Assembly (NCBI GenBank): GCA_904393845.1
Contig: CAJFNB010000001.1
Coordinates: 16,341 to 80,340, forward strand
From: Candidatus Alloclostridium intestinigallinarum
Lineage (GTDB): Bacteria > Bacillota > Clostridia > Christensenellales > UBA3700
DNA: 64,000 nucleotides
Direction: 5' to 3'
Part shown: positions 38,917 to 57,000 of the stretch, one piece after another
How the letters are laid out: every line of letters begins with the position of its first letter
Numbering within the stretch: the stretch's first letter is position 1
The notes under the pieces: generated by a model
Told to the model about the DNA's origin: nothing
The model's input: the letters and a program-made list of their open reading frames with translations, nothing else
Database searches by the model: none
Position numbers and translations under genes: made by a program

Positions 38917-38920
38917 GTCG

Positions 38921-39047: not shown

Positions 39048-39088
39048 ATTTCCTCGCCACCGCGCGTCCGCGCAATGCCGCTTATTGT

Positions 39089-39854: not shown

Positions 39855-39997
39855 AGTTTCCTCCTTATCACATAATATATTTCTTAGTGATATGTTCCTT
39901 GAATTCCCTTATGCGAATATCTCTTTCGCTTTCAAGAGTAGCTGGAGACCCTTGTATACAATAGCCGCCAACAGGAAGCCATCCGAGACGGGAAAAT

Positions 39998-40165: not shown

Positions 40166-40269
40166 ATTATACTCTCCCCGTTCACTTGAGATTTCCAACA
40201 AAACCTCCGCGACGAGGTTATCCAGCTTGCCTGCCTGTAAAAGTCCGTGAATGCCATTGTCTACCCTCC

Positions 40270-41382
40270 TTAGCTGTCCGCCTTGCTTATATCGCCGTCG
40301 GTGCAGTGAACAGTATAATTGCCTGTATTTGAATTCCAGCTATATACCTTACTTATTCCCTGCCATTGTGACTGTGTTCCCGCATAGTTTATGCTTGTCA
40401 ACCTTGTGCAGCCGTATAATGCATACTTGCCTATACTTGTTACGCTGTCGGGTATGGTTATACTTGTCAAGCCACTGCAATAGGAGAATGCCCATTCTCC
40501 TATGCTTGTTACGCTACCGGGTATAGTTATACTTGTTAAACCACTGCAACCGGAGAATGCATCATTTCCTATGCTTGTTACACTTCCATCATCAGGAATT
40601 ACACTGTTTTGACAACCTGATATAAGCGTTTTGCTTGCCGTTTCTATTATACAATTTCCCGAACTATGATATATCGGATTGTCCTGTGCTACAATTATAC
40701 TTGTCAAACCGCTGCAATTGTAGAATACATTACTTCCTATGCTTGTTACGCCGCTCGGGATTGTTATGCTCGTCAGTCCGGTGCAATTTTGGAATGCACT
40801 GCTTCCTATACTTGTTACACTATCGGGTATGGTTATGCTTGTTAAGCTACTGCAATTGTAGAATGTGCTACTTCTTATACTTGTGACGCTGTCGGGTATG
40901 GTTATACTTGTCAAGCCACTGCAATCTCGGAACGCACTGCTTCCTATACTGGTTACGCTATCCGGTATAGTTATGCTTGTCAAGCCGGTGCAACCACGGA
41001 ATGCACTGCTTCCTATATTTGTTACAGGCTTTGCGTTGTGTTCGGTAGGTATTACTATTTCATTTAATGTTTTGCCGTGATCAGTAAGCCCTGTTACTGT
41101 CGCCGCCGCGTTGGTTTCCGAAAAAGTAAAAATTTCAGGCGGGGCTGTAACTGGTGTTGTAATTATTCCCGCATTTATCGTGCTTCCGTCCGAAAGCGTT
41201 AGCTTCAAATCATAGGAATGCTCCGCGTCGTCAACCGTTATATTACCTGCGTCAATCTCCTGCCCGTCCGAAAGCGCAAACTTCACCTTGTACGTGCCTT
41301 CTATATCGGGAATAACAAAAGAAACGGTTTCACTCGTACCGTCCGACTTTGTAATATTGAGTTGATACGATTTTGTCGCCAT
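40270..41382 (-). CDS. BspA-type leucine-rich-repeat protein (receptor-binding candidate)
   Basis: About 7 repeats of SAFxxCxGLTSITIPDSVTSIGS, preceded by the fibre-type N-terminal module. Confidence 0.75.
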   Translation of the reverse strand: MATKSYQLNITKSDGTSETVSFVIPDIEGTYKVKFALSDGQEIDAGNITVDDAEHSYDLKLTLSDGSTINAGIITTPVTAPPEIFTFSETNAAATVTGLTDHGKTLNEIVIPTEHNAKPVTNIGSSAFRGCTGLTSITIPDSVTSIGSSAFRDCSGLTSITIPDSVTSIRSSTFYNCSSLTSITIPDSVTSIGSSAFQNCTGLTSITIPSGVTSIGSNVFYNCSGLTSIIVAQDNPIYHSSGNCIIETASKTLISGCQNSVIPDDGSVTSIGNDAFSGCSGLTSITIPGSVTSIGEWAFSYCSGLTSITIPDSVTSIGKYALYGCTRLTSINYAGTQSQWQGISKVYSWNSNTGNYTVHCTDGDISKADS

Positions 41383-41385
41383 TTA

Positions 41386-41532
41386 CTATTCCCCCGTAAC
41401 CGCCGTAAGAGTTACTCCCGTAATGCTTACGCCGTCGTCGCCCTTATCCCCGGCTGGTACTATAAATTCCCCAGCGGGAATTTCTGTACCATCTGTGAGT
41501 GTAATTTGTATAGAATAAACTTTATCAGCCAT
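41386..41532 (-). CDS. 48-aa fibre adapter-like protein
   Basis: ATG 41532 behind AAGGAGA. MADKVYSIQITLTDGTEIPAGEFIVPAGDKGDDG matches the N-terminus of the 162-aa protein. The longer track ORF (to 41742) overlaps the upstream gene and was rejected. Confidence 0.55.
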   Translation of the reverse strand: MADKVYSIQITLTDGTEIPAGEFIVPAGDKGDDGVSITGVTLTAVTGE

Positions 41533-41569
41533 GTTTTTTTCTCCTTTTTTTCTCAAATATTTTAATCTG

Positions 41570-42574
41570 TTACCAGTGGATAATAATTCTCCCGTTCGCT
41601 CCGCGACCTCCGTTTGACGAGCTCCCCAGATTACGATAGCCGCCTCCACCTCCGGCACCTCCCGCAGTGCTAGGGGCATCTCCTCCATTTCTGCTTGAAC
41701 TCGTACCATCTTCGCCACCTCTGCCAAATTGGCTGCAAGCACCTGTTCCTGCGCCAGATAAACTTCCTTTTACCTCGTAACCGCCACGATTGATGCGATA
41801 ATCATCTCCCTCTGTGGGATACCCAACAAATACAGAGATGGCATCGCTTTCTGTGCCGCCATCCACGACGCCTCTGCCTCCGGTGTAACCATCCGCCTGG
41901 TACAAAGCAACAAACGCAGACGGAATGGTCACTGTTCCACCATTACCGGCGGTACCATCGCTAGCACCGTGACCACCGCCACAGATAAGACTTTCCCCTC
42001 CGATTTGAAGAGAAGAATTACCTCCCGATTTCCCAGTTCCTCGATACGTTCCACCGGTTGCTCCTTCGCCGCCTCTACCTATCACACAATAAAGCGTATT
42101 GTTTTCTCCTCTAAAGGTTTTAAAATCAACCGCAGTCACAGCATAGCCGCCACTGCCGCCGCCGACCCCGCATAATAAGGAGGTACCGCCGGAACCTCCG
42201 CCACCGCCGCCTATTATTTCAAATATCAATATGTCTTGAGTGCTCGGTATTTCCGGTATCAAAGTATCTCCTGATGAGTTGCGCGTATAGTACTCCCCGT
42301 TCTCGCTCCTGTATATCCATATGGCTCCATAGCCAGAAAAAAATTTGGAAGAAAGGTCATAACTATTTGTAAATGTAGGGCGGCCGCCTTTTCTACAAAA
42401 CATCACGGGCGCGTCATTTTTTTGAACTTTTTCAACAGAGACATTCGTAAAATCTAAGAAAGGTTTTATATATTCGTAGTTTGAAAAAGCTCTTGATCGA
42501 GGGTCGGTTTTATCTGTCGCCACTTCCAAATCATATGCTTCGGCAATATCCGTTCCGTTTATTTTTAGCGGCAT
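41570..42574 (-). CDS. glycine-rich adhesin-like tail protein (paralog 2)
   Basis: N-terminus is homologous to 43111..44886. Runs such as IIGGGGGGSGG, CGGGHG, GGAGGGGGY are typical of Gly_rich-type domains. Confidence 0.65.
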   Translation of the reverse strand: MPLKINGTDIAEAYDLEVATDKTDPRSRAFSNYEYIKPFLDFTNVSVEKVQKNDAPVMFCRKGGRPTFTNSYDLSSKFFSGYGAIWIYRSENGEYYTRNSSGDTLIPEIPSTQDILIFEIIGGGGGGSGGTSLLCGVGGGSGGYAVTAVDFKTFRGENNTLYCVIGRGGEGATGGTYRGTGKSGGNSSLQIGGESLICGGGHGASDGTAGNGGTVTIPSAFVALYQADGYTGGRGVVDGGTESDAISVFVGYPTEGDDYRINRGGYEVKGSLSGAGTGACSQFGRGGEDGTSSSRNGGDAPSTAGGAGGGGGYRNLGSSSNGGRGANGRIIIHW

Positions 42575-42576
42575 AA

Positions 42577-43065
42577 TTACTCCTCCACCATGTTAATCGA
42601 CGGAGCTTCAATTTCCGCGCTAAATCTAATTTTCCCGTCAACTATTTGAAAATGCTCCGCGACGAACAGTAGTTGCTGTATCTGCTCATGTGTTAAAGCA
42701 GGCAAGTATCCGTCGGGGGTTATCGTTCCCTCTTTTACCGCTACGTCTTGAATTCCTACACCTTTTATATTTTGCCCTTCAGGATTTGGTTTTCCGCCAT
42801 CATTTGTCCACGAAATATTTCCGTCCGCATCCACCGAGGGAGTAAATGTCGTTCCCGTGTCGCCTTTCACACCTTTTATGTTCCGCGCCGCTGGATTTTG
42901 TTTACCCCCATCGTTCGTCCAAGAAAGGGTACCGTCTTCGCTCACGGAAGGGGTGAATGTTGTACCCGTGTCACCTTTGTCTCCGGCGGGGACAACAATA
43001 CTTCCGGAATCGACTGACGTGCCGTCTGTTAACGTAGCCGTAAGTTTGTATATTCTGTCTGCCAT
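42577..43065 (-). CDS. short tail fibre with tandem ~36-aa repeats
   Basis: GDKGDTGTTFTPSVSEDGTLSWTNDGGKQNP is repeated. The C-terminal module EQIQ...DGKIRFSAEIEAPSIN is shared with the 572-aa fibre. Confidence 0.65.
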   Translation of the reverse strand: MADRIYKLTATLTDGTSVDSGSIVVPAGDKGDTGTTFTPSVSEDGTLSWTNDGGKQNPAARNIKGVKGDTGTTFTPSVDADGNISWTNDGGKPNPEGQNIKGVGIQDVAVKEGTITPDGYLPALTHEQIQQLLFVAEHFQIVDGKIRFSAEIEAPSINMVEE

Positions 43066-43110
43066 TCCTTTTCCTCCTATTTTTTTTGTTAATTAATAGT
43101 AAATATTTTA

Positions 43111-44886
43111 TTAAACACAAAAACAGTAACTTATCCTCGTATCACTAGAGGGCGAAGAACTGCTCATGTGTCCCTGCGGATCGACGATTGAATATTGGTT
43201 TTTAAATAAAGTATCGCATGAACGAAGCCACCAAGAACTCGCTCGACTCTCATCATTAGACAAATATTTTATCCTATCTTTATAATTATTTCCATCTTTA
43301 ACACTTCTCCAATACTCATATTGTTCTCCTTCAGCTAGGTACGGGCTAGTGTTATCTTTTTCCTCAATCTCTGCCTCCGCAAGCAACCAAAGCTTGTCTG
43401 AAGATATTACAATATCTGTACTTCCCAACCCTTCCATCGCTCTTTTATTAACTGGTTTAATGACTTTTTGTAAATCGGCTGGAAGTTCTAAAAACAGCGC
43501 AGGCATCGTATAATTGCGCATATAACTTCTATCCCACCCCCAACAAGTAGAGGAAGACTCCATTTTATATTCCGTCGTAAGCAAATTTTTCATACCAATG
43601 GTTATTTTCGCTTTTCCGCTACTATTAGATAGGTCATCGTGGTCAAACCCTAAAATCACAAGTGTTATCTTTTCCCCTGTACTCAAAGTAATAGTTTTTT
43701 CATCCCCCACTGAGAAGAAAACACTCGCCTTGCCCACACTTGCAATATTGTCAATTTCTGTCCATGAAGCATTTGAAAATGTAATAGGCTCAATCGGCTC
43801 CGTATAGACGATAATCTTTGGACGTCCACCATTACCGCCATTAGACTGACTGAAGGCTTTCCCATGTCCCCCTCCACCGCCTGCGCCATTTGCATTGATA
43901 TCTGCGTCACCGCCATCATAGCCATTGTTGGTCTTGCCCTCAATCCCCCCATTACCAAACTGGCTGGGGGCGCCAGAGCTTGCGCCTCCTCCCTCGGTAA
44001 CGCCATTGAATCCGCCACGAGTCAATTTATACTCATCTCCTTCATTTTCGAAACCAACAATTAAAGTATTCTGGGGACAGGTAATAGTGCTTGCACTAAC
44101 TCCACCATTTGCAGACAAACCGTTTGTATAATAAAGAACTGATATTGCTTCTGGTAGGTCATCGGAGATATTGATTGTACCACCACTTCCTACGTCGCCC
44201 GCGTTAGCTCCTTTTCCGCCTCGACAAGTTATTACAATTTTTTCTTTTCCACTTTCTTCGTAGACAACTTCCACATCACGCCCACTAGTCGCAGAGCCGC
44301 GATTAGATGCACCTATTCCACCATAGTCGGAACTGCTTGGCGAATCATTGAGCGGTTTTATACGTACTCTTACTTTTGCATAACTATAAGTTCCACCACT
44401 TTCGTTATATGGTAGTTCCTCAGTATTGACCATGATTACTGCATATGCTCCGGCGCCGCCACCAACACCAGCCAGTATTGCGCCGCCACCGGTACCCCCT
44501 CCGCCACCGGCTACCATTTCAATAATATAACAAGTTGAGGCACTTTCCGTTGTTTCCCCGTTGTTCGTAGACCAAACTGATAAGAAGTTCGTAGTGGGAG
44601 TTTTAGTGTCAGGCTTGGAAAATACGATATTCCATTCTTGAACATCTTCGCTCGGAGGCGGGGCAGGTGCATACGATATCACCTCTGTAAAACTTGGTCT
44701 TCCACCTTTTGTGCAAAAGGTCATAGGCGTGCCGTTATTTTTAAATTCGGGAATTTGAATCTTCGTACTTTCGAAAAATGGTTTTATATATTTATGATTC
44801 AAATATGCTCTTTCCCTTGTATCCCCTTCGCTCGCAACCTCCAGCATATATTTTGTTTCAATATCTTCTCCATTTATTTTAAACAT
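43111..44886 (-). CDS. glycine-rich adhesin-like tail protein (paralog 1) with extra C-terminal WWLRS domain
   Basis: MFKINGEDIE... is homologous to paralog 2. MVAGGGGGTGGG, NGAGGGGGHG. The C-terminal ~225 aa with SSWWLRS resembles DUF6273. Confidence 0.65.
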   Translation of the reverse strand: MFKINGEDIETKYMLEVASEGDTRERAYLNHKYIKPFFESTKIQIPEFKNNGTPMTFCTKGGRPSFTEVISYAPAPPPSEDVQEWNIVFSKPDTKTPTTNFLSVWSTNNGETTESASTCYIIEMVAGGGGGTGGGAILAGVGGGAGAYAVIMVNTEELPYNESGGTYSYAKVRVRIKPLNDSPSSSDYGGIGASNRGSATSGRDVEVVYEESGKEKIVITCRGGKGANAGDVGSGGTINISDDLPEAISVLYYTNGLSANGGVSASTITCPQNTLIVGFENEGDEYKLTRGGFNGVTEGGGASSGAPSQFGNGGIEGKTNNGYDGGDADINANGAGGGGGHGKAFSQSNGGNGGRPKIIVYTEPIEPITFSNASWTEIDNIASVGKASVFFSVGDEKTITLSTGEKITLVILGFDHDDLSNSSGKAKITIGMKNLLTTEYKMESSSTCWGWDRSYMRNYTMPALFLELPADLQKVIKPVNKRAMEGLGSTDIVISSDKLWLLAEAEIEEKDNTSPYLAEGEQYEYWRSVKDGNNYKDRIKYLSNDESRASSWWLRSCDTLFKNQYSIVDPQGHMSSSSPSSDTRISYCFCV

Positions 44887-44891
44887 TGTGC

Positions 44892-46610
44892 TTACTCCGT
44901 TGCTGCATTGAAGCTAGGTGCTTCCAGTTCTACCGCAAAAATAACTTTGCCGTCGGTCACTGTCATATTCTGCGCGAGATATTGGAACATCTGAATTTGT
45001 TCGGGGGTTAAACCAGGTTCTCCTGCCGCTCCTGGGTCGCCTTTGTCCCCCTTTTGTCCTTTTTCGGTAAAAAGTCCCCAGTGCTGTACGTCCGCATCCG
45101 GTGTTTCCATACCGTTGGATATGTCTGCTATGCAGCAATAACTGTTACCATCATATTCAACTACATCATTTATGACATATTGACCAGTTCCGCTTGTCCA
45201 TGTACCCAAGAATGAGAAACCTTTGCCGTCCTTTCCGGGCTCACCTGGTTGTCCTGGAGCGCCGGGAGCACCTGGTTGTCCTGGAGCGCCGGGGTCGCCT
45301 TTTTCACCATTTTTTGCCTTGATTTCGACAGTAGAAGAACTTCCATCAGTTTTGTTGAATTTCGCCTTGGTTACCATATATTCCCCGTCAGTCGATGTTT
45401 CTTCTACGATAACGTCTGTAATGCCGACACCATCGCCACCATCTTGCCCAGGGGCACCTTGCTCTCCTCTTGATGGTTTCCCCGTATCTTCTCCGTCAAT
45501 AAACCAGTTTCCGTTCTCGCCTATTTCCGGCGCATTTTTTGTGGCAACTTCTCCCCATTCAAAGTCGTAATCTTCATCGCTTTTCTTTACAAGCGCTTCC
45601 CCTACATTTCCACCAGGAGGGATAATTTCCCCTTTGCCGGGAACAGCACCTTCCTCTTCAAGCGTCAACGTCTCTACACCCACGCCGTTCTTGGCTTTTA
45701 CTTCGGCTTCCTGGGAATTCCCGTCTTCAAAGTTGAATGTGATAGGAGTCTTCGTAAATCCCCCGGCTGTAGAAGAAACGCCACTCTCTACAGATTGTAC
45801 GCCACTCTTACCATTTGTTACAGTGTATGTTATAGCGTCTCCATCATTAAAAGTGATTTCATATGTATCGACTAAGCCTTCAGTATTTTTTTTCACGAGA
45901 CTTGTGATTCCCTTGCCTTTGGGGATTGAGAACTTCAGTTCTATTGTTTTCCCGTCTTCGCTTGCGGTGGTCTCGATTTTAGGGGTACTGCCAGGCGTGA
46001 GTTCCTCTACAACCTCGTCTACTGTTATCTTGATAACAGAAGGTTTGTTTGTATCAACGCCGTTAATAACCCAGTCCCCGTCCTCGGCAATCTCGGGTGC
46101 TATAAGCCCGTTAGCATATTCTTCTAACTTCTTTGCCGTAGCGAGTAATTGCGCCAATATGTTTTGAGCTTCCCCATCGGTTTCCCCCTCATTGTCGGTT
46201 ATATTGGTTGCGGCAACATGTATATAAAACCCTTGGGAAGTCAAAACCTCTACCCCTTCGGAGTCCGTATCGCTTCCGATGTCCGTCTGAAACGCAATGT
46301 TGCATAACACACGACCTTCTTCCTTCAATAGTCCTGCCGGAATAGCTATCGCCGCCTGCGTGTTTTTGGGTTTACTCAGTTCCTCAAAAGCGTAGTTCAC
46401 TAATTCACCGTCCGGCAAAACCGCGTACACTATTGCAGAAGTGTAATTCGATAAGTCTATTTCACCACGGTCATCATATAAGGTTACAAGCAGTATTCGT
46501 GACTTTGCGTCGCCTATCTGCGCTGAAACTACAGACACCGGAGCAACATTATAATCTACCGTAGGCAACCTCAAACACCTCACGGCCTTACCTGTCAAAT
46601 CAACAGACAT
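44892..46610 (-). CDS. BppU-like baseplate/fibre protein with collagen-like repeats
   Basis: N-terminal BppU_N-type pattern (VSAQIGDAKSRILLVTLYDDRGEIDLSNY). G-X-Y runs (GAPGQPGAPGAPGQPGEPGKDG). Confidence 0.7.
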   Translation of the reverse strand: MSVDLTGKAVRCLRLPTVDYNVAPVSVVSAQIGDAKSRILLVTLYDDRGEIDLSNYTSAIVYAVLPDGELVNYAFEELSKPKNTQAAIAIPAGLLKEEGRVLCNIAFQTDIGSDTDSEGVEVLTSQGFYIHVAATNITDNEGETDGEAQNILAQLLATAKKLEEYANGLIAPEIAEDGDWVINGVDTNKPSVIKITVDEVVEELTPGSTPKIETTASEDGKTIELKFSIPKGKGITSLVKKNTEGLVDTYEITFNDGDAITYTVTNGKSGVQSVESGVSSTAGGFTKTPITFNFEDGNSQEAEVKAKNGVGVETLTLEEEGAVPGKGEIIPPGGNVGEALVKKSDEDYDFEWGEVATKNAPEIGENGNWFIDGEDTGKPSRGEQGAPGQDGGDGVGITDVIVEETSTDGEYMVTKAKFNKTDGSSSTVEIKAKNGEKGDPGAPGQPGAPGAPGQPGEPGKDGKGFSFLGTWTSGTGQYVINDVVEYDGNSYCCIADISNGMETPDADVQHWGLFTEKGQKGDKGDPGAAGEPGLTPEQIQMFQYLAQNMTVTDGKVIFAVELEAPSFNAATE

Positions 46611-46613
46611 CCC

Positions 46614-46988
46614 TTAGTCCTCCTTTATGATTGGTTGTAAAGCTATCATCTCTGCCGCAGAAAGCGTCAGAGGCTCTATTTCGTCCAAATTGAGCGCGAT
46701 TTGAGGCGCGTCAACTTGTGTATCGTCTAACTCTTTAATTGCGCTCCTGCAAGCGCTCAGGGCGTCAGGTTTTATTTTGCAACTACCTCCGTCTTCAACA
46801 ATCTTTCCGCCCTCATCTCTCTCGCCATATTCTTCTACAATGGCGCGGAGTTTTTCATTATAAAAATTTTCCTCGTCATCCGTTCCTTTAATTACCTTCA
46901 TCATCTTGTAAGCAAGCCTCGCAGGTACCTGAATTTGTGACTTGGATATAATTATTTTCCTAATTAGAAGTAATTCGTCTAACTTCAT
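46614..46988 (-). CDS. hypothetical tail-module protein
   Basis: Start moved to ATG 46988 (MKLDELLLIRK) behind AAAGGAGA. Lies between Tal and the BppU-like gene. Confidence 0.5.
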   Translation of the reverse strand: MKLDELLLIRKIIISKSQIQVPARLAYKMMKVIKGTDDEENFYNEKLRAIVEEYGERDEGGKIVEDGGSCKIKPDALSACRSAIKELDDTQVDAPQIALNLDEIEPLTLSAAEMIALQPIIKED

Positions 46989-47020
46989 AAATAAAATTCT
47001 CCTTTTATTCCGTTTTGATA

Positions 47021-47049
47021 TTGACAACCTCCGAAAAATGATTTATGAT
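47021..47049 (+). promoter_or_regulatory. near-consensus sigma-70 promoter for the lipoprotein gene
   Basis: TTGACA (47021-47026), 17 nt spacer, TATGAT (47044-47049). Confidence 0.65.
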
Positions 47050-47078
47050 AAACATAAGTTCATTCTTCGGAGGGGATT

Positions 47079-47591
47079 ATGAAAAAATTTGCTTTGATTT
47101 TGCTTGTCGCCGTGCTGTGCGTACCGATATTCGCATTTGCCGCCTGCGCAGAACCCGACGACCCTTACGACCTCTCCACTAAAGAGATAGGCTACGAAAT
47201 TCCCGTCTACCCCGACTGCGAGTTTTCGTATGTGGTGAAGTGGGAAGAATGGGATCCCGAAACCCGGGAAGACATTGAAAAGAGCTGTACCGTAAAAATT
47301 ACGGATATGAAGGCTATTTTAATAGAAAAAAACTCAATTTCTCAAGGAGATACCCTTGAAAATGATTACTATCCTTACATAATAAAGATTACTATTGAAG
47401 GACAAACCGATGTTGCATTTGCAGGATTAAAGGTAACTTGTTATGTTCGTGGTGATAATTCATCTAGCTCTCTCCTTAATTCAACAGTTGATAATGACGG
47501 AAAAATTAGGTGGGAAAATAATTTAGGGTATGATTATCTCTCGGGATTGTCCTTCTCTGGACTTTATACTTCGGGAAATTTTCAATATTAA
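47079..47591 (+). CDS. lipoprotein encoded antisense to the tail operon (moron)
   Basis: RBS GGAGGGG. Signal peptide plus lipobox (IFAFAAC). It is the only plus-strand gene inside the 25-kb minus-strand late arm. Confidence 0.75.
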   Translation: MKKFALILLVAVLCVPIFAFAACAEPDDPYDLSTKEIGYEIPVYPDCEFSYVVKWEEWDPETREDIEKSCTVKITDMKAILIEKNSISQGDTLENDYYPYIIKITIEGQTDVAFAGLKVTCYVRGDNSSSSLLNSTVDNDGKIRWENNLGYDYLSGLSFSGLYTSGNFQY

Positions 47592-47599
47592 TTATTCCA

Positions 47600-50500
47600 T
47601 TATTTCGTTGAAATTGTTTTACCCTCTAATGTCCAGTTTCCCTTTAAATTACCACCGTCGGGTGTTATTTCAATGCATGGAGAACCATTTATACTAATAA
47701 CGAACACTCCATTGCTATCATAATTAAAACTTAGTTGATTTGCATCATTGTCAGAACTCTCCACGATGCATAGTCCAATATGTCCTGAGCCTCCAAGCCC
47801 CGCGAGAGTTGGTCCCAAGTATGCAGCTTCACCATCCCCGGTGATGTGTATTGTTCCATCTTCTGCAAGGGGAAAAGTGGTACAAGCTACTCCCTGAGCA
47901 CTAACCAGCGCAGAATAGTTCGGTTCTTTAATATCTATTATACCCTTATTGATTGATACCTTTCCGCTATTATCAACTGTAAAACTACCCTCGCCGAGGT
48001 TTAAACTTCCTGCAGTTATCGTAACAGAACCATCCTTGGCAGCCTTGAATTTTCCGCCCAAATTCAGTCCATCTGTACCGAGATAAACACCCTCCTTGGT
48101 GCTGGTCATCGAATCCGTGCCGTTGCACAATGCTGTACTGCCGATAGTAAATCCACCGATTGTGCCGCTTTTTGCAGTCAAATAGCCGTCGTTGTTCACA
48201 CTGAACAAACCATTACTTGCCGATATGCTGTTTTTGGATAATGTCAGTCCGCCTATCGTGCCGTCCTTCGCAGTCAAATGGCCGTCGGCTGTCACTCCGA
48301 ACAACCCGCTTGACGTAGTTATACCGTCTTCACTGAAAGCAAGGGCAAACGTCGTAACATCGCCCTCGATTTTCCTTGCTACGCCTATGCCGCTTTCACC
48401 TATCGTAAGCCCGCCTATAGTGCCGTTCTTCGCGTGTATTATGCCCTTCAACATCACGTTGCCGCTACTGTCTGCCGAGAATACCGTTTCCCCGTTCCCG
48501 TCTTCGCCCGGCACTTTAATGGTTATGCCGCTTTCGTCAAGGGTGATTGTGTTGGATTCATTGCTGATTTTAAGGTTACTGCCCATAATCAGATTGCCCA
48601 CCAGCACGTCCGCTATTAGACCGTAAGCGGTGGTATTGTCGTCCAAAGAGACTTCACCGAGTGCGAGCGAGGAAGTCAGCCAATTATCTTCGGTGAAGAG
48701 CAGAACGTTGTTGATAAGACGAACCTGCCTGGGAGAAAACTTCTCCGCAGTCTCTCCGTCTTCTCCGCTTTCTGCTTTCTCGATTTTTCTGCCCAAAATA
48801 CCTGTTTCGTCTATCGTGAACTGTTGGTTAGCCATATTGCCGATAGCCGCCCTCAGGGTACTGTCTAACGGCTTTTCTATCAGGTTTGTAATCGTTTCCT
48901 TGTTTTTGGAATAGTCGGTCAAATCCGACCAATTGGAAACCACGGTTTTACTCACCGAGGACGTCTCCTTGAGTATGTCCGCCAGCGAAAGAGATGTGCT
49001 GTTCGGCCGCGTTGCCGTGGAAAAACTCATCGAAAAATCTTCGGCTGTGTCCAGGTTAAAACTTATCTCCATTAGAGCAGGTTGAAAGAAATTGCCGTCC
49101 GATTTTTCTATGGTGATAAGCCTTCCGAGTTCAAGCTGTTCGCTAAAGGTTTCAAATTCCTTTATCCTAAGGAAATTTATCGCATTTACAGTTGTTTCAT
49201 ATTTGGGTTTTGCGGCACGCGATAAATCTTCCTGCGCCGCGAGCATGAGTTCCCGGGAGAGTGTAAGCCTCTCTTCAAACGGCATATCCTCTGTTTCGGC
49301 GTAGTTCTCGTTGGAATACTCACCTTCTATCCAATAGTGCTTAAGTTCCAGGTATAATTCTGTACCGTGGTCTTTGTCATAACGCTGAATAAAATATTCG
49401 ACGTTGCAACCATAATTTTTATAAGGGTCGTTTTCGTCAATTTCTTCGCCGTCGGGTAAATCATATCCCTGCGCTATTTTGGAAAGGCTTTCGTTAATGC
49501 CGTCTATCGCATCTTGGATTTGTTCTTTTACTTCCGTAAGCCGCTTTTGCTCATTCTCCCAAATGGTTTTCCAGCCGCTGTCCCCGGGCACCTGGCTATA
49601 CATTGTATATCTCACAAAGCCGGAAACATAGAAGTATCTCACAGAGGTGGAATTAGCACCTTTTAGCACGCCGTATCTCTTATCAGCCACGCTGTAATAA
49701 TTCGTATTGACATCCCACGAACTGGTTTCACCGTCGCCGATTGGTAAAGAGATTTCGTCACCGCCGTCGGATGGGATAAATTTTCCTTCCGTCATTTTAC
49801 CCGAGGTGACTGCGAAAGTTATGCTACCTTCTTCTCCGTTGTAGTTTTGGTTATCGAACGTAACCGTTCCCGTCTCCGACAACTTACCGTCGGCGTCTTT
49901 GACCGCCTGAACTTCGGTATCAATAACAAGCTTGCAAAAGCTCTTCTGTGCTTCGGCAGTTTCCACACCGTAGCGCTTGTCGTTAATGATGTAATAAATC
50001 GTATTAGGGGACTGTACGCTATCATCTACTTCTATCGACAATGGTTTTTCTACTATAGTTCCATTATTCGATTTGTGAGTAGCTTCGGTTATTTCTCCGT
50101 TATCTACGACAATCTTTATAATTTCCTTCGGATTGATAATTCTTATCGTACCGCTTGTAGACAGCGCCCCGCTTTCGTTTTTAATCAGATAAGTGCTGTC
50201 TTCTGTAATAAGTCTGCAAAAGCTTACTTTTCCGTCAAAGAAATAAAGGGGCGTTAAATCCTCTTTCGTAGAAATAAAATCTTTTATCAGTTCATTCGGA
50301 GTTCCCGTAGTTCCCTGGTCGGAACCTTCTTCCGTTGTATCGTAATAAAAAACATAGTCCTTATCACCTTCAACGATTTCTTTCATCTTCGGAGCCGATT
50401 TATAGGCCGTAATTTGTTTATCGGGATTGTCCGCTTCAAAGACAGTATTTTGCCCGTCTGCCGCCTTAAAATACACCGACGGGGGATATAAACTGTTCTT

Positions 50501-51775
50501 ATCGACGTCCACCTCTTCGGCGGTAATATATTCCTTCCCTGTGGGGATATTACCGTCTTCGCCGGTTAAAGCCTCGTCGCTTGCATTTTCTTTATCTGTC
50601 TGCATTTGTTTGACGACCACTTCCAAATCGTTGACCTTTAAATTGGCATAGACTAATTCTTCGTCGTTCTCGGTCTTGAGCTTTTCCTGGTCGTAAAGCT
50701 CCTGCATAAGTTGTGTGTAACTTCCGTCGTCTGTTGCTTCCTGCGCAGCTTTAAGATGCTCTTCCCAATCCTGTAGCGCTCCGACCAATTCTTTCGACAT
50801 CCACGGATAATCAACTTTACCGTCTTCGCTTTTATCTTTCATATAATACTCGAAGTCGGCGACATAGTTTGTCCCCATAGGGTTGACGTTAGTAATGTCT
50901 AGACCGTCTCCCGAAACTTCCATAACCGTCACAAGCTCATCGGCTTTTTCATTGATAGCCATTTTCGTTGCGACATTATCAAACGAAAGGTATATATCTG
51001 TGGGGATATTTACATCTTCATAATCACGCACAAATATTGCGTGATGTAAGAAATCGAACTCGAAAACTACATTAAAAGCCTTTTCTACCTCGTTGATGAT
51101 AAAGTCATATGCATTCTGGTCTGAACTTTCCGAAAAACTTCTGCAAGGGTTACTGTCTTCAGAGTTGTTTGCGGGCGTATATAATCCGTTATATCCCGTC
51201 TCATCGTCCTTTATTCCGAGTGAATTAAACCTCACGGAAGGCGTAATCCAAACGATTGTCCATTGTTTTAAATCTTCTGTGATTGTGGGTTCGCTTATCG
51301 GTGAGACCGCCATACTTCCCAGCTTAAGCCCCGCTTGTTTGCAAAGCTGTCCGATGACAGACGGCATCGCGGCAGGGTCGCTGTAATCGTATTGGTCGTC
51401 CTCAAGGTCATTTGTGTTGACGAAGGTGTATACCCTGTCTTCCGTTACGAACCCACTCTCTTGCAGTTGTATCTGGTGCGAATACGCGCTTACGCTTTTT
51501 GTAGACACGTCGCCCTGGGTTTCTTCTTGTACGTCGGCAATTTGGAACCAGCCTATATCCTCGATATAGATAAGCCTCCTGCGTTCAACAAGCCCGTAGG
51601 CTACCTTGTCGATGTAGGCGCTATTCACCGTAAACGTAATTTCCGACAAGTCGTTGAATCTCAAAGACAGTTTCCTTTCGCTGGCTTCGAGAGCGCATAA
51701 AAATCTTCCGTCGGGATTACAAAGATACATCGTGGGACTTTCCACTTGACGATAATAATTAAATTTCGTTATCAT
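47600..51775 (-). CDS. tail-associated (Tal-like) minor structural protein, 1391 aa
   Basis: Immediately downstream of Dit. The N-terminal ~350 aa are typical of siphovirus Tal / minor structural N-terminal regions. C-terminal repeats of (A)K(D/S/N)GTIGG(L/F)T(I/L). Confidence 0.7.
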   Translation of the reverse strand: MITKFNYYRQVESPTMYLCNPDGRFLCALEASERKLSLRFNDLSEITFTVNSAYIDKVAYGLVERRRLIYIEDIGWFQIADVQEETQGDVSTKSVSAYSHQIQLQESGFVTEDRVYTFVNTNDLEDDQYDYSDPAAMPSVIGQLCKQAGLKLGSMAVSPISEPTITEDLKQWTIVWITPSVRFNSLGIKDDETGYNGLYTPANNSEDSNPCRSFSESSDQNAYDFIINEVEKAFNVVFEFDFLHHAIFVRDYEDVNIPTDIYLSFDNVATKMAINEKADELVTVMEVSGDGLDITNVNPMGTNYVADFEYYMKDKSEDGKVDYPWMSKELVGALQDWEEHLKAAQEATDDGSYTQLMQELYDQEKLKTENDEELVYANLKVNDLEVVVKQMQTDKENASDEALTGEDGNIPTGKEYITAEEVDVDKNSLYPPSVYFKAADGQNTVFEADNPDKQITAYKSAPKMKEIVEGDKDYVFYYDTTEEGSDQGTTGTPNELIKDFISTKEDLTPLYFFDGKVSFCRLITEDSTYLIKNESGALSTSGTIRIINPKEIIKIVVDNGEITEATHKSNNGTIVEKPLSIEVDDSVQSPNTIYYIINDKRYGVETAEAQKSFCKLVIDTEVQAVKDADGKLSETGTVTFDNQNYNGEEGSITFAVTSGKMTEGKFIPSDGGDEISLPIGDGETSSWDVNTNYYSVADKRYGVLKGANSTSVRYFYVSGFVRYTMYSQVPGDSGWKTIWENEQKRLTEVKEQIQDAIDGINESLSKIAQGYDLPDGEEIDENDPYKNYGCNVEYFIQRYDKDHGTELYLELKHYWIEGEYSNENYAETEDMPFEERLTLSRELMLAAQEDLSRAAKPKYETTVNAINFLRIKEFETFSEQLELGRLITIEKSDGNFFQPALMEISFNLDTAEDFSMSFSTATRPNSTSLSLADILKETSSVSKTVVSNWSDLTDYSKNKETITNLIEKPLDSTLRAAIGNMANQQFTIDETGILGRKIEKAESGEDGETAEKFSPRQVRLINNVLLFTEDNWLTSSLALGEVSLDDNTTAYGLIADVLVGNLIMGSNLKISNESNTITLDESGITIKVPGEDGNGETVFSADSSGNVMLKGIIHAKNGTIGGLTIGESGIGVARKIEGDVTTFALAFSEDGITTSSGLFGVTADGHLTAKDGTIGGLTLSKNSISASNGLFSVNNDGYLTAKSGTIGGFTIGSTALCNGTDSMTSTKEGVYLGTDGLNLGGKFKAAKDGSVTITAGSLNLGEGSFTVDNSGKVSINKGIIDIKEPNYSALVSAQGVACTTFPLAEDGTIHITGDGEAAYLGPTLAGLGGSGHIGLCIVESSDNDANQLSFNYDSNGVFVISINGSPCIEITPDGGNLKGNWTLEGKTISTK

Positions 51776-51786
51776 CTTATCCCTCC

Positions 51787-52683
51787 TTAGAACTTTATCC
51801 GCTTATAATGCGGACACGATATGGTCACGCTGCCGTTATTATCCGTTGCCGGCGTATACGTTATACTGCCGTCAGAACCTTCAACGGCAGTCTCCCACAA
51901 GATTTGCAGGTTGTTTTTACCGCGCAAAAGCCTGAGCCACTGTTTGTTAAAGTTCCCGAGCAGATTGCTGTTTACACCTATATTCTGTGCAAAAGTCTTT
52001 AACTCGTTATCTATCACAATCGGATAGTAGGATATTGCGGGAGTGCCCGTACCGTCGCTTTCCGCATCTTTCGGCACTACAAGCTGAAATTTGCGGTCTT
52101 CTTTGGTCAAACTATTATCTGTAAGGTTGATAATGGTCAGCCTGTCGCCGCCCGCCTTATTGATTGTTACAGTCGGATAAACATAATCGTCAATCACGTC
52201 CGACTTGTTAATTATTGAGAATTTATTTGTATCATTGGTATTTCCTGTTATAGCCTTAGTTGTAGGTTTACCGTATTGGAACGGCGCATCGAATTGCGCC
52301 GATAAATTATATCCGACGCAGAAGCCGGCTTGATATATAGTACTTGTAACCGTGAAAATACAGTTATAAGTAAAATCGGTAAAGCCGGTCTGGTATATGT
52401 TCAATTTTCTAAATCCTTTTCGTGAGTCAAGCCAATTGAGTATATCTTGCTGTGACTCTTCCGTAATAGGTCTCTCGCTCACAACGGAAAATTCATATGC
52501 CGGCGGATTGTCATAATTCATCCCCTCATAAAAAAATCTTTTGGAGCGAGTGGGTTTCCCGGTTGAAATTGTGGGAACCACATATGCGGTTTCTTCCAGT
52601 GGATTTGCATCAAAACTCATAATTTTGAGACCGTAGTCTCCGGAAAACTTTCCGTCATATGTAAAATTAGTCGCTGTAAACAT
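51787..52683 (-). CDS. distal tail protein (Dit)
   Basis: 298 aa; position between the tape measure and Tal; N-terminus FTYDGKFSGDYGLKI... is typical of the phage tail family. Confidence 0.65.
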   Translation of the reverse strand: MFTATNFTYDGKFSGDYGLKIMSFDANPLEETAYVVPTISTGKPTRSKRFFYEGMNYDNPPAYEFSVVSERPITEESQQDILNWLDSRKGFRKLNIYQTGFTDFTYNCIFTVTSTIYQAGFCVGYNLSAQFDAPFQYGKPTTKAITGNTNDTNKFSIINKSDVIDDYVYPTVTINKAGGDRLTIINLTDNSLTKEDRKFQLVVPKDAESDGTGTPAISYYPIVIDNELKTFAQNIGVNSNLLGNFNKQWLRLLRGKNNLQILWETAVEGSDGSITYTPATDNNGSVTISCPHYKRIKF

Positions 52684-52708
52684 CCATTTTCTCCTTTAAA
52701 AATTTGTA

Positions 52709-52735
52709 TAAAAAAAGAAGCCCTTAGAAGGCTTC
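52709..52735 (-). terminator. canonical rho-independent terminator just upstream of Dit
   Basis: Minus strand: GAAGCC (52735-52730), 7-nt loop, GGCTTC (52722-52717), then TTTTTTT. Confidence 0.75.
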
Positions 52736-52763
52736 GATAATTTCCAATCACGTACACCCTAAT

Positions 52764-53399
52764 TTATACAAGAAAACCGATAATTGATAAAATTGCACCA
52801 ATGGCAATACTTGCAATAGGCACTACAAATTTACTAATAAAATCTTTTTGCTTTGCCTTTTTCTGCTTGCTTTTTAATTCTTCAAGAACAGGCAAAGCGT
52901 CTTTTATTTTATCATATTGTGCGCGCAGTCCTTCTACTATCTCTTGATAAGTCTGCATTCTTTTGTCAGCACCATCTTTATCAATCCCCTTTTGTTCTCG
53001 GAGAGTAGCAATTTTTTCCGAATATTTCTCTATCATAGGACGAATGTCGCTATAATAGTTCGGAATCGCTGCTCTTATTATCTCGGGATCATAAATTTCA
53101 AGAGTATCAACAATTTTGTTTCTATAGTTTATAGAGAGCATATCGCATATATCATAATATGCCCTTTTTAAATGACTTATTAGCTTCGTATATTCAGCGT
53201 CCGCATCTATATTGACATTATTGCCTATAGTAGTATTTGTGATTGCAATGATCCGCATCGTGTGATCAAGAGCTGCCCTAAATTCATTTAATGGTTGAAG
53301 GTTAGTCTTTAATTCGGGATCTGTTTCCTCACAAAGAATATAGTACTCTTTAATGCGTATGTAATATTCTACAACTTTATTCCAGTCGATTTGTCCCAT
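52764..53399 (-). CDS. C-tail-anchored helical protein (accessory cassette gene 2)
   Basis: 211 aa, all-helical by eye, extreme C-terminal TM (VVPIASIAIGAILSIIGFLV), very AT-rich codon usage. Contains NEFRAALDH (an Rx4H string). Confidence 0.6.
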   Translation of the reverse strand: MGQIDWNKVVEYYIRIKEYYILCEETDPELKTNLQPLNEFRAALDHTMRIIAITNTTIGNNVNIDADAEYTKLISHLKRAYYDICDMLSINYRNKIVDTLEIYDPEIIRAAIPNYYSDIRPMIEKYSEKIATLREQKGIDKDGADKRMQTYQEIVEGLRAQYDKIKDALPVLEELKSKQKKAKQKDFISKFVVPIASIAIGAILSIIGFLV

Positions 53400-53426
53400 A
53401 GTTACATGAAATTTATATAGAAATAG

Positions 53427-53612
53427 TTACGGCAGAGGACGCCTCAACGATTTTTTTCTATAATTAAGGTCTTCCTCTTCCGTTCTATACTGTCCTAAAT
53501 TGATTCTAACACCACCAGTAAAAAATCTTTTTTTATTATCTCGCCTAGTAGCGCAAGTAATCGTCGGAACTTTCTCATAATCCCTAAATAATATCTCGCT
53601 CATATTGTACAT
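53427..53612 (-). CDS. small basic protein (accessory cassette gene 1)
   Basis: 61 aa, R/K-rich. It is the first ORF downstream of the cassette promoter. Confidence 0.45.
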   Translation of the reverse strand: MYNMSEILFRDYEKVPTITCATRRDNKKRFFTGGVRINLGQYRTEEEDLNYRKKSLRRPLP

Positions 53613-53660
53613 TTTTTTAGTCCACCCCGCAAGACTGTTGCTTTATGTCAGTTCATTATT

Positions 53661-53690
53661 ATAATACATTTTGTATACGATAAATGTCAA
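53661..53690 (-). promoter_or_regulatory. sigma-70-type promoter of the accessory cassette
   Basis: Minus strand: TTGACA (53690-53685), 18 nt spacer, TATTAT (53666-53661) preceded by TG. Lies inside a ~470-nt AT-rich gap. Confidence 0.55.
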
Positions 53691-54082
53691 TGGTTTTCAC
53701 TATTTTATTGAAAATTATATAACATCTAATATTTATAATCTATTCTATATCTATATATATTATACTTATATTTAATCTTGTCGTCAAACAAGCGTCACTC
53801 TTTACTATAAACCCATTACTTGTATTTATAGTATAACACATATTTTGCGTATTTGCTCCTATGGGGTGCAAAAGTCTAATAAATTTTACATTTTACCGCT
53901 TTGTAGTGCTATATTTCTCATAGTCAATCACTTGTTCAATCCCAAGTTTTATATTCTAAAAAATAGACATAGTTTCTCCTTCGCTCATATTTTCATTTGA
54001 TAAAACTACTCTTTTATCACGGCGGAAAGAACTAATCTCTCCGCCGTATACCGCATTAACTATGGGCGCGGGAACCCATAAA

Positions 54083-57000
54083 CTAGACGCTGGCTCTGTA
54101 ACCGCGCCTGGTCAAAGCATTTTCCATGTTGCGCTCAATTTTCGCAACAGCAGCGTCAACCATATCCGACAGCTTAGGCAGAGTTTCATCGTCTATGGTT
54201 CCGCATTGTATAGTAATGAGTGGCGAATTGTTGTTTATCGTCGCTCCATTGGAATATGATGTCACGCTCGGGAGAATATTTTTCATAAAGTTGTCCATTT
54301 GAGCAGGAGTGGAAACAAATTCCCCTTTGAGGAGTTTAGCAAACTCTTCATTGGATTTGAGATCCGCTATATCCCCGACAAAGCCACCCGTGTGGTAAAT
54401 TCCAGCAGCCTCTTTAAAATATTTAAGTTGGTCTCCAACAAGAGAAACTCTGTCTTTAAGTTTTATGGCGTGTTTTCCTCCATCAGTCATAGCATATATA
54501 TCGCCTTTGTAAGCGAAAACCGCTCTTTCATTAAACCCTCTTGCTTGCGCGGCGGCAAGTATGTCGGCACTTTCTCCTGCGTTCTCAAGATGATATGAGC
54601 CACGTCCAAATCTCACAGTTCCCCAATCATTAGCATCATTCCAGCTAAAATTGTAAGCCGAAGCGCCTTTGATAAGTTCCAGCTCATTAGGATTTATTTG
54701 ATTTTTCGCCTCTTCACCTGGGGTTTCCTCTGTTTGAGTTCTATTATTGTTGAACCATTCCAAGGTATCGTTGTAATATGACGCGGCAGAGCTATAGTCG
54801 TTATTCTTCATAGCTGACACGAATTTCTCTTGTATGCTACCCGCGTTGAAGTTTTCTCCTTTTATCTGCTGATACAAAGAATACATATCTGTAGCACCGT
54901 CTGAAAGAAGCAAAAACCCAGATACTTCGCCTAAAATCTCTTTTACTGTAGTAGCTATGCCGTCAATCTGGCTTGTTATTTTGTCAACCTCTTCCTGTAT
55001 AAATGCTTCATACTCTGCGTATTCGTTATCCATTGATAAGGTTATATCTTGTATAGCATGTTCTAATGTATATTCGTCCAACTCTTCTTGAGCTGTCTGC
55101 AACTCATCTTCTAATTGTCGTTGTCTGGCTTGCCCCTCCGCACTTGTATCCAACCTAGCCGCATTCAATTGGGCTCGCAAAGTTGCCACATTCGCTTGCT
55201 TCCGATTTAACTCCTTTTGATAGGAAACTTCTTCTTGATAGGTTTCTAAGATGTCTTTTCTTATATCGACTAACTCTTTATATATGTCAAGCTGTTCTTC
55301 AAGGGCGGTCTTACGAGCTTCTAACTTTTCTGTTTCGTCTTCTATTTTTAAATCCCGCAATATGGTTGCCCATTCCAGTGTTTTCATATTTAAGTTATCT
55401 TGGGCAATCGCAAGATTTTTCATCGCAACTTCATAGTCATCATCTTCTTCTGTAAGACCATTTAAATTATTTTGGGCGGTCTGCAAAGCCTCTTGATATT
55501 CCGCTATCTCCGATTTTGCAATACCTTGCATTATATCGAAAACTGACTGATTTTGATATTCATCTTTTAATGCGTAACCATCTTCGGTCTTTTCAAAATA
55601 AGTAGATATATCATTAGGAACTTCTTCCATTAAAGTTTTAAGCGTATCCAAAGAGATAACGGCATTTTCCTTTGCTTCAGCAACGGCTTCACTAAGCGCA
55701 TCAAATTGGGAAGAGATTAACTCGATGTCGTCTTCAAGAGACAGTGTGGCTATTTCCTGTAATCCCGTTCGTAAATCTTGTACATATTTGGCCAAAGAAT
55801 CCCAATTCTCTCCATCCCACGCGCCCATTTCCTGCAGGAGAGAGAAGACTTCCTTTGCATCAGCATTTGTTTCGGCAAAATTTTTAACCGCATCTCCCGT
55901 TATCTCTGAAGAACGCTTAAATCCGTTTGCAAACTCTTCTACCGCTTTAATTCCAGCCTTGTGTTCTCCCTTCATAGAGAGTTCTTCCCAAAACTGGTTT
56001 ATGCCATCTGTGACAAGAGTGAACATGGAGTTCCATTTCTCTACATTTTGCAAAATGTTATTTAGTACTAAGTTGTCTCCATATTTCATTCCATCAGTCA
56101 ACTCTATAAGATCTGACAAATGATTTGTTGCCCAAGACCTATCCTCTTCCGAAAGAACTGCATTCCCATCCTTATCAACAGCATTCCAATTAGCTAAGAT
56201 ATCAGTAAGGCGTTCGCTGCCAGCCATCCCTTCCTTTTCGCCTTCTTCGTTAAATCGCATATAGGTATCGACAGCAGTATCTTCAGCTTCTTTTTGTAGT
56301 TCTTTTGCTCCCTCTTCCAGAACACGATTTCGTTCATTAAGTAGCGCAATTTCTCTTTGGATTCTTGCTATCTCTTGTTCATCGGCAATACTTGGCGTTC
56401 CAATGCTTTGCAACTCAATAAGCCGTTCCTTTAAGTCATCTATCGTGGAAGTGTTTTCTTCGATGGCGCTTTTATTCTCTTCCCATGCCGCTCTCGCCTC
56501 TTCAGCAGCCTCTTTTGATTTTTCGTACGAAGGAACTAAATCTATAATCGCTTGAATAGCCATCAGAACGGCAGAAATCGCAGCAAGGATCCATCCTATG
56601 GAGTTAGACATCTCAAACTTTTTAACCGCCATAGTTATTAGTGTTAGCGCCGTAATAACAGCGGTAGCTATACCAATGACTGCGATTGATATTTTTGCCT
56701 CGGCATTGTCAAATGTAGCGATTAAAGCCAATATAGTCGGTATAACAACCGGGATTGAGTTCTTTAATCCTTGGGCAATTTTTTGTCCAGTTGTAAGAGC
56801 TGCATTTCCTGTATCTTTGAACGCTTTCCTCACTGTTGCTAAAACAATGGGTATAGCAACCAAAAATGGAAGTAATTGTCCGTCCCCAACGCTCACAATT
56901 GCGTCGAGCCACGAAACAAACATGGATAGCATATCGACAACGTTTTTAATTGCCGTCGTATCAAGCAGGCTCATAGAAAATCCTTGCCACGCGGCGGTCA

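Follow-up and report, generated by a model that had tools for sequence, protein, structure and literature searches.

A conserved antisense lipoprotein gene beside the tail-tip gene of a Christensenellaceae prophage and its possible role in superinfection exclusion

Introduction

To our knowledge, only few model systems exist for phage lipoproteins that exclude superinfection, namely the coliphage proteins Llp and Cor and, in dairy streptococci, Ltp, and the phage biology of Christensenellaceae and other gut Clostridia is almost unknown. Llp is a very small protein of about 60 aa; located in the periplasm of a diderm, it targets FhuA, a receptor of the outer membrane. Cognate pairing of llp with the pb5 gene is a feature of T5-like phages. 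The active domain of Ltp reportedly consists of helical repeats in tandem and is directed against the tape measure protein. Cassettes of a variable C-terminus and an adjacent partner, with orphans in the chromosome, are known from CdiA-CT/CdiI and Rhs-CT/RhsI.

In phage T5, llp adjoins the pb5 gene on its downstream side. Llp excludes superinfection, and the protection of progeny from debris was proposed as its second role (PMC9586334). In Ltp of Streptococcus thermophilus phage TP-J34, a spacer links the lipid anchor in the cytoplasmic membrane to an active domain on the outside; the protein blocks DNA injection. It is transcribed in the lysogen, and its gene is part of the lysogeny module, with int and the repressor gene on either side (PMC3952083). 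According to work cited in PMC11480721, the block is reportedly exerted via the tape measure protein. Morons were described as independent transcription units in the late regions of prophages, with a likely benefit to the host (PMC3594210).

In this study a lipoprotein gene located antisense in a tail operon was analysed and compared with these systems. The window, i.e. the whole stretch of DNA that was analysed, comprises 64,000 nucleotides. The original prediction had placed the gene beside the receptor-binding genes and had named Ltp as an example of its possible function.

Results and discussion

Comparison with described systems

The lipoprotein resembles T5 Llp, and Cor of the T1/phi80 type, in that its gene lies beside a receptor-binding or tail-tip gene, is predicted to be expressed apart from the late genes and is conserved in the phage lineage rather than being a sporadic moron. 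In contrast to these proteins, it has a predicted Ig-like domain of 148 aa and a Bacillota host, and its gene is convergent and antisense without a terminator. No family match and no fold similarity to them could be detected (Foldseek against PDB and BFVD, E ≤ 0.001). Furthermore, a specificity matched to the receptor-binding protein of the own phage, as expected for proteins of this type, was not found: the same Tal tip occurred with unrelated lipoprotein C-termini, and the reverse.

Ltp is likewise a prophage lipoprotein of a Gram-positive host with anchor, spacer and ectodomain, which are predicted from the sequence in the present case. The lipoprotein is nevertheless no relative of Ltp: there was no Pfam, PHROG, NCBIfam or PADLOC match to the Ltp family, the predicted domain is all-beta, and the gene is located antisense in the tail-tip module. 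It thus belongs neither to the Ltp nor to the Llp/Cor family. With Pfam, PHROG, NCBIfam, PADLOC and Foldseek, no described exclusion protein was found to resemble it in sequence or structure. The location next to receptor-binding genes had been called unusual. This holds only in comparison with Ltp (PMC3952083), since llp of T5 is located likewise (PMC9586334). In the present phage lineage the position beside the tail-tip gene is the rule.

With morons the gene shares a sigma-70-type promoter of its own and the placement between late genes of a prophage. Unlike morons, it is non-sporadic, no terminator was found and the GC content does not set it apart from the adjoining genes. As in CdiA-CT/CdiI and Rhs-CT/RhsI, the C-terminus of the Tal protein and a small gene are swapped as a block, and truncated orphans occur in chromosomes. 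In contrast to these cassettes, the two genes are convergent, no toxin domain was found and the pairing is not obligate.

By analogy, the chances are about even that the protein acts in superinfection exclusion or host protection, in the way of Ltp or Llp. We infer its localisation, its expression in the lysogen, its exclusion activity and its target.

Gene, promoter and lipoprotein signals

The lipoprotein ORF covers positions 47079-47591 of the plus strand and codes for 170 aa (ATG at 47079, stop codon at 47589-47591). A Shine-Dalgarno sequence, GGAGGGG, is located at 47069-47075 (+), 3 nt 5' of the ATG. A sigma-70-type promoter was found at 47021-47049 (+), with TTGACA as -35 hexamer (47021-47026), a spacer of 17 nt and TATGAT as -10 hexamer (47044-47049). 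Thus, the near-consensus promoter and the strong ribosome-binding site of the original prediction are both present. The promoter reaches a score of 11/12. On both strands of 38000-57900 five promoters with this score were found, including the one of the lipoprotein gene, so the score by itself is weak evidence. What counts are the position and the conservation of the promoter.

Lipoproteins were recognised by a positive n-region, a hydrophobic h-region, a lipobox of the form [LVI..][ASTG..][GAS]-C and a Cys within the first ~35 residues; the lipobox patterns used were PROSITE-like and G+LPPv2-like. Residues 1-22 with Cys23 (47079-47147, +) comprise a predicted signal peptide, MKKFALILLVAVLCVPIFAFAAC, and the Cys to be lipidated. 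The layout is MKK-FALILLVAVLCVPIF-AFAA-C23 with the lipobox A-F-A-A-C. The signal peptide passes both patterns, in agreement with the classical lipobox claimed before. A Gram-positive lipobox pattern was passed by 87 of 90 family members, and the lipobox Cys is the sole invariant column in the wide-family alignment A3 (32 sequences). Judged by these signals, the ORF is a real lipoprotein gene.

As a small ORF opposite an operon, with a hypervariable C-terminus, it could also be regarded as a spurious antisense ORF or as the target of a diversity-generating retroelement. Both are extremely improbable. A spurious ORF is ruled out by the homologues (about 100 clusters of conserved length), by dN/dS < 1 and by the confident AlphaFold2 fold; moreover, the ORF overlaps no other gene in the window. 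For the retroelement, the region 47001-48600 was compared with the window by blastn, and no second copy that could be the template repeat was detected. No reverse transcriptase was noticed among the window ORFs scanned, which were a part of all ORFs.

Genomic context

Positions 1 to ~19.2 kb of the window are host chromosome with 52-55% GC and the genes for MetRS, polysaccharide synthesis, Wzy, GH20 and an amidohydrolase. Phage genes with about 40-46% GC occupy the remainder, from ~19.5 kb onwards and up to the window end. Because host flank and phage genes are found in one window with a shift in GC, the phage is an integrated prophage. No integrase was found at its left end; the right end lies outside the window. 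The early arm on the plus strand codes for methylases, Erf, exonuclease, primase-helicase, DNA polymerase, NrdD and a sigma factor, and the late arm is on the minus strand. The lipoprotein gene is the only plus-strand gene called in the late arm, as had been predicted; this is borne out by the gene calls on identical contigs and by the ORF list. Its GC content is not distinct from that of the adjoining genes.

On the right, the gene is convergent with the gene of a Tal-like tail-tip protein of 1391 aa (47600-51775, -; phrog_6211, E = 8e-51), which was assigned also by the order TMP-Dit-Tal. The distance to the Tal stop (47600) is exactly 8 nt, as first described. The N-terminal third of the Tal-like protein is a hub-like minor tail protein and the remainder a fibre-like extension with GTIGG repeats. 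Its distal tip is variable at about 47600-48430, the segment that is swapped between the window (W) and locus L011. An S74 chaperone domain, present in most relatives, is missing in the Tal protein of the window, and no lysin domain was found in it by Pfam and further domain searches. The genes of a Dit-like distal tail protein with DUF6558 (51787-52683, -; domain match) and of a tape measure protein of 1011 aa (54083-57118, -; phrog_4211, E = 6e-27) were also identified. By analogy with Ltp, the latter is a candidate target of the lipoprotein.

On the left, a divergent gene of 124 aa (46614-46988, -; phrog_1401, function unknown) is separated from the lipoprotein gene by an intergenic region of 90 nt. 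Its start codon is located 33 nt from the -35 hexamer of the lipoprotein gene. The next gene, 44892-46610 (-), codes for a collagen-repeat tail fibre (Pfam Collagen, E = 1e-6; PHROG tail fibre families). It had been labelled BppU-like; the match to BppU_N is sub-threshold in Pfam (E = 0.047). The lipoprotein gene had been described as wedged between Tal and this fibre gene. Tal does adjoin it, but the fibre gene is separated from it by the conserved 124-aa gene.

A search for an intrinsic terminator 3' of the lipoprotein ORF gave no convincing candidate. Therefore, the lipoprotein transcript is expected to run antisense into Tal. Conversely, a late transcript that extends as far as the 124-aa gene and the fibre genes would have to traverse the lipoprotein gene in the antisense direction.

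Protein family and predicted fold

By word-indexed search, 27 clusters of close homologues with 162-186 aa were found, all derived from metagenomes or MAGs. An exhaustive profile search extended the family to about 72 representatives at 50% identity. Nearly all members of this wide family are 150-175 aa long and can be aligned over their whole length. They are marked by (E/D)hG(Y/D)ExPVYPxCEFxY, a motif that follows the linker and is recognisable throughout. In some members a coiled-coil or collagen-like spacer is inserted between anchor and domain, which fits an ectodomain on a tether.

No match of the lipoprotein, full-length or mature, was obtained in Pfam-A, NCBIfam or PADLOC. The full-length protein matched T4 Spackle (phrog_1586) with residues 1-94 (E = 0.0048). 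This candidate was rejected because the match was driven by the signal peptide and vanished once the latter was removed. By tblastn, GenBank phages gave no match to the lipoprotein, and scans of IMG/VR and JGI metagenomes with the close-family alignment gave no loci. With the sub-alignment A4 of the wide family seven IMG/VR loci were found. On the basis of these searches, the lipoprotein founds a family that was previously unannotated.

An AlphaFold2 model, built with the 27-sequence alignment, reached a pLDDT of 90.7 and a pTM of 0.77. It comprises the signal-peptide helix followed by a seven-strand all-beta domain of Ig-like type. With Foldseek nothing was found in PDB and BFVD at E ≤ 0.001, and the best matches were generic Ig-like sandwiches. 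Hence, the prediction of the structure that had been proposed yielded a confident Ig-like fold, but no informative structural relative. The model suggests that the ectodomain is a generic Ig-like binding module, and the fold suggests no enzymatic function.

A sequence search of the PDB gave a weak match to an Ig-like adhesin repeat (4p99, E = 8e-4). The family profile matches the DUF11-repeat protein P0076 with 4372 aa. This profile-level similarity to Ig-like repeats of giant surface and adhesin proteins raises the question of a surface factor in lysogenic conversion, without a role in phage defence, e.g. an Ig-like adhesin or an envelope modulator of benefit to the gut bacterium. Surface variability could then reflect host or immune pressure, and the retention of orphan copies described below fits any host benefit. 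We regard such a factor as very doubtful. For a generic adhesin, the strict and ancient linkage to Tal in phages of differing GC is hard to explain. A small protein close to the membrane beneath the wall suits adhesion poorly, and the Ig-like similarity is generic.

Position and promoter in related phages

The examined phage loci were W, L001-L004, L006, L007, L009-L011 and L019 and the distant loci L012, L013 and L016. In every one of them the order is a 124/125-aa gene (-), the lipoprotein gene (+) and a Tal gene (-) coding for 1286-1498 aa. The left neighbour is the 124-aa gene without exception, and this gene is conserved throughout the phage loci, the distant ones included. In most phage loci the convergent 3' ends of the lipoprotein gene and Tal overlap by 11-18 nt. 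As the same position is found in every examined locus, down to 30% identity, the gene is a stable part of the tail-tip module and no sporadic moron.

Across the nine close loci of alignment A2, chromosomal orphans included, no variation was seen in the -35 hexamer, in the length of the spacer (17 nt) or in GGAGGG (9/9), and the -10 hexamer is intact in 8/9. The IMG/VR phages with lipoproteins of 30-40% identity differ in the intergenic sequence. Their promoters consist of TTGATT or TTGACT, 17 nt and TATAAT or TACAAT with TGn extension, followed by GGAGG and ATG, and the distance between promoter and ATG is the same as in the close loci. This apparent conservation in function is the best available evidence for an independent transcription by the host RNA polymerase. 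The conserved promoter and orientation also support the earlier claim of a host-type promoter of its own, antisense within the tail-tip operon.

A fixed core position is more typical of a need of the phage itself than of an accessory defence gene. Therefore, a function in the phage's own lytic cycle has to be discussed. A protein made early, by way of the host-type promoter, could coat the membrane of the infected cell. It could mask the receptor or neutralise tail tips, which would spare the loss of progeny on the debris of lysed cells, or it could help in tail-tip function or egress. Position and orientation kept to 30% identity, as for a core gene, the tight packing against Tal with its 3' overlaps and the dual role of exclusion proteins (PMC9586334) are in favour of such a function. 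Nevertheless, it seems unlikely in all these forms together. Orphan copies in phage-free chromosomes argue for a benefit to the cell, an antisense late transcript across the gene would work against late expression, and the variable half is not matched to the tip of the own phage.

Variability of the lipoprotein and pairing with the Tal tip

Among the 27 close homologues, residues 1-56 hardly vary despite many synonymous differences (pooled pN/pS 0.16-0.19). This includes the N-terminal stretch of the mature protein, residues 24-56 (AEPDDPYDLSTKEIGYEIPVYPDCEFSYVVKW; 47148-47246, +; pN/pS 0.16), in which the family motif is located. The pattern of substitutions indicates strong purifying selection on the N-terminal third. 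Residues 57-170 with the stop codon (47247-47591, +), the C-terminal stretch of the beta-sandwich, form a hypervariable mosaic according to the comparison of loci. Here, the identity is 24-58% between most compared loci and 64-94% among few closely related ones, with a pN/pS of 0.46. The segments 1-56, 57-90 and 91-end reassort independently.

In the pairs W/L011 and L004/L010 a single block is replaced, reaching from lipoprotein codons ~35-50 through the C-terminal 120-280 aa of Tal, and the flanks around it are 95-100% identical. From this block swap a cognate pairing with the Tal tip, like that of llp with the pb5 gene, was first suspected. The variable block of Tal (RBD) was therefore delimited, with the conserved stalk as one border and the S74 chaperone domain as the other, and 13 loci were compared. 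Both parts were similar in L005r-L008r (Tal RBD 96%, lipoprotein residues 91-end 96%) and in L009-L010 (82 and 76%). For L006-L011 (88 and 38%) and L004-L023r (83 and 34%) similar tips were found with dissimilar lipoproteins, and the reverse was found for L010-L011 (30 and 97%). Thus, two of the four pairs with a Tal tip identity ≥ 80% carry unrelated lipoprotein C-termini. The overall correlation between both identities is weak (rho = 0.38), and adjacency alone would give as much. No covariation of the lipoprotein was detected with the 124-aa gene, the downstream fibre, Dit or the Tal N-terminus.

Obligate cognate pairing is ruled out by this decoupling in both directions, and the joint swap of the C-termini is explained by physical adjacency. 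The simplest model, in which a lipoprotein excludes phages with the tip of its own phage, is not supported by the compared sequences. The distal half of the lipoprotein appears to diversify in its own right.

A looser connection would be a functional module of the lipoprotein and the C-terminal region of Tal, comparable to cassettes of toxin C-terminus and immunity protein, in which the lipoprotein neutralises or partners the Tal tip. Near-identical phages, which differ by just the one swapped block over both genes, point to this explanation. It is nevertheless distinctly unlikely, because the pairing is not obligate, the joint swapping is what adjacency alone would yield and the domain searches with the Tal tip gave neither an enzyme nor a toxin. 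The orphan copies bear on this module as well.

Orphan copies in host chromosomes

Of the 13 lipoprotein clusters with visible context, five were found in ordinary chromosomal neighbourhoods without the rest of a phage. These orphan copies occupy at least three chromosomal sites. At site 1, orphans L005 and L008 with the allele P0012 or a P0016-like one lie among UvrD, a Fe-dependent repressor, a 143-nt tandem array containing tRNA-Glu, a trypsin-like protease and gidA; their Tal fragments have 414 and 407 aa. The same neighbours (UvrD to gidA) surround a different allele, P0023, with a Tal fragment of 450 aa in L020 and L021. Site 2, with VEG and a short-chain dehydrogenase, carries P0007 in L022 and a Tal fragment of 440 aa, which is 94% identical to the Tal gene of the window on nucleotide level. 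Site 3, with RNase E/G, L21, Prp and L27, carries P0010 in L023 and L024; the Tal fragment of L023 has 324 aa, and its tip shows 92% nucleotide identity to L004.

Each orphan retains the promoter, an intact lipoprotein ORF and the 3' end of Tal as an open frame of 216-450 aa. Relative to the ATG, the left edges are at -92, -95 and -176; the former two coincide with the start codon of the 124-aa gene. For the site-1 orphan pair, dN/dS was 0.19 for the lipoprotein (dS = 0.12) and 0.23 for the Tal fragment (dS = 0.16), and dS of a flanking host gene was 0.20. These values are in line with copies that were inherited vertically and kept under purifying selection. However, the same picture could arise by gene conversion from phages, and exchange at an orphan site does occur, since different alleles are located at the same site (L020 vs L005).

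That promoter and lipoprotein gene were repeatedly and independently kept argues that the gene is of use to the cell. The Tal fragment, which is always retained and intact, is not accounted for by selection on the lipoprotein alone. This is in favour of the module of both genes mentioned above: all three independent orphan sites keep the two genes with intact Tal-fragment ORFs, the Tal fragment has the low dN/dS given above, and the whole block occurs as a different allele at one chromosomal site. The truncated Tal C-terminus might be a decoy or an assembly poison, co-trimerising with full-length Tal. On the other hand, the independent orphan events known are just three, and the mimicry by phage gene conversion applies here as well.

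More specifically, promoter, lipoprotein gene and Tal C-terminus may be a discrete, exchangeable cassette, which Christensenellaceae would have domesticated repeatedly as an orphan module against phages. In it, entry would be blocked by the lipoprotein. The Tal C-terminus would poison the tail-tip assembly of infecting relatives by co-trimerising, or it would be a recombination reservoir for the diversification of tail tips. We assign a slim probability to this domestication. If true, it would be a phage-tail counterpart of the orphan cassettes of polymorphic toxins.

Proposed function

Superinfection exclusion is still the best functional guess, and the repeated retention of orphans is an indirect support for it. 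According to this proposal, the gene would be transcribed from its own promoter of host sigma-A type, independent of and antisense to the late tail operon. The product would be exported by Sec and lipidated at Cys23. A short, acidic and proline-rich linker would tether the Ig-like beta-sandwich of about 140 aa, which would be displayed on the external side of the cytoplasmic membrane in the Christensenellaceae (Bacillota) host. The carrier cell, either a lysogen or a bacterium keeping only the lipoprotein gene, would be shielded from related siphophages. The block would act at a membrane step after adsorption, so that the DNA stays out. For this purpose the lipoprotein may bind an incoming component of tail tip or tape measure, or a membrane receptor. 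The conserved N-terminal third could be the constant core of the interaction or of the fold, and the hypervariable mosaic of the C-terminal half the surface of an arms race.

Two features of this system are unexpected, the decoupling of the hypervariable half from the own tail tip and the recurrent chromosomal orphans. If exclusion is confirmed, phages of Christensenellaceae and of further gut Clostridia would possess an unrelated and structurally distinct exclusion family, and in microbiome engineering genes of this type would restrict the hosts that related phages can infect. Should its role be a different one, the gene is still a conserved and unannotated core gene of the phage lineage. In general, the system offers an entry point to the membrane crossing of phages of gut Firmicutes and to the ways in which hosts use phage genes in their own defence. 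It is tractable because of the fixed antisense position, the constant third with the mosaic hypervariable half and the repeated capture as orphan. Among 185,579 species-representative genomes, the only match was an uncultured Christensenellaceae MAG (Bacillota/Clostridia).

Chromosomal orphan units and the Tal C-terminus

The promoter, the lipoprotein gene and a C-terminal fragment of Tal were also found as orphan units in the host chromosome, without the rest of the phage. These units lie amid housekeeping genes at three distinct sites, represented by the related loci L005 (9912-11743), L008 (9909-11722) and L020 (5909-7831) for site 1, L022 (1128-3165) for site 2 and L023 (5906-7150) for site 3. 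In all of them the frame of the Tal fragment is open up to the natural stop. For site 1 two strongly divergent orphan alleles were detected, each from different samples.

The Tal C-termini (window 47600-48430, compared with the phage loci L006, L009-L011 and L019) show two architectures. The first contains a Peptidase_S74 intramolecular-chaperone domain. The second, which lacks Peptidase_S74 and ends with ...GNWT..., was identified in the window, in the phage locus L004 and in the orphans of sites 2 and 3. Near-identical phages differ by a swap of this C-terminal architecture.

Tandem repeats were observed beside some orphans. A 143-nt unit with 6.6 copies (L005 11843-12813) directly adjoins the site-1 orphan, and a tRNA-Glu(CTC) (L005 12793-12867) is located inside one of its units; this array possibly represents a phage attachment site in reiterated form. 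The site-3 orphan is directly adjoined by a 51-nt repeat with 4.3 copies (L023 7192-7420), which contains the palindrome TGTCAAG...CTTGACA and into which the 324-aa 'Tal fragment' ORF of L023 extends.

Outside the window, in the lipoprotein family members P0085 and P0086, the lipobox is separated from the conserved domain by a spacer, collagen-like or coiled-coil, of 60-90 aa. The conserved domain of such members would be set farther off the membrane.

Variable regions and further prophage genes

In the distal tail-fibre region, a BspA-type leucine-rich-repeat (LRR_5) protein is encoded in the window (40270-41382, minus strand) and such proteins were also detected in L004 (4061-9535), L006 (4017-9533) and L010 (4040-9535). 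In some relatives the 572-aa collagen fibre is replaced by an LRR_5 giant of 1824-1838 aa, which shows extensive modular exchange of the host-recognition genes. The tape measure gene is separated from the Dit gene by a variable insert (window 52764-54083, minus strand), which contains a 61-aa gene and the gene of a 211-aa protein with a weak PHROG match to an XhlA-like 'hemolysin'. Two sigma-70-like minus-strand promoters (11/12) precede it, with starts at 53787 and 53690. The relatives L004, L009 and L011 have other small genes or none in this interval.

The junction of host and prophage was located at about 19.2-19.6 kb, where the GC content drops from 0.52 to 0.40. At this end of the prophage (window 19100-19700) neither an integrase nor a tRNA was found, and the first phage ORF (19669-20637, 322 aa) is without family match. 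The early arm ends, immediately ahead of the late arm, with a phage-encoded sigma factor (window 38395-38916, plus strand; Sigma70_r4_2, DUF1492). A possible role of this factor is to drive transcription of the late arm; the lipoprotein gene, by contrast, has a promoter of host type. In L009 (1-1899) an intein that contains a LAGLIDADG domain interrupts the phage NrdD gene; NrdD comprises 980 aa there, compared with 635 aa in the phage loci L001 and L011.
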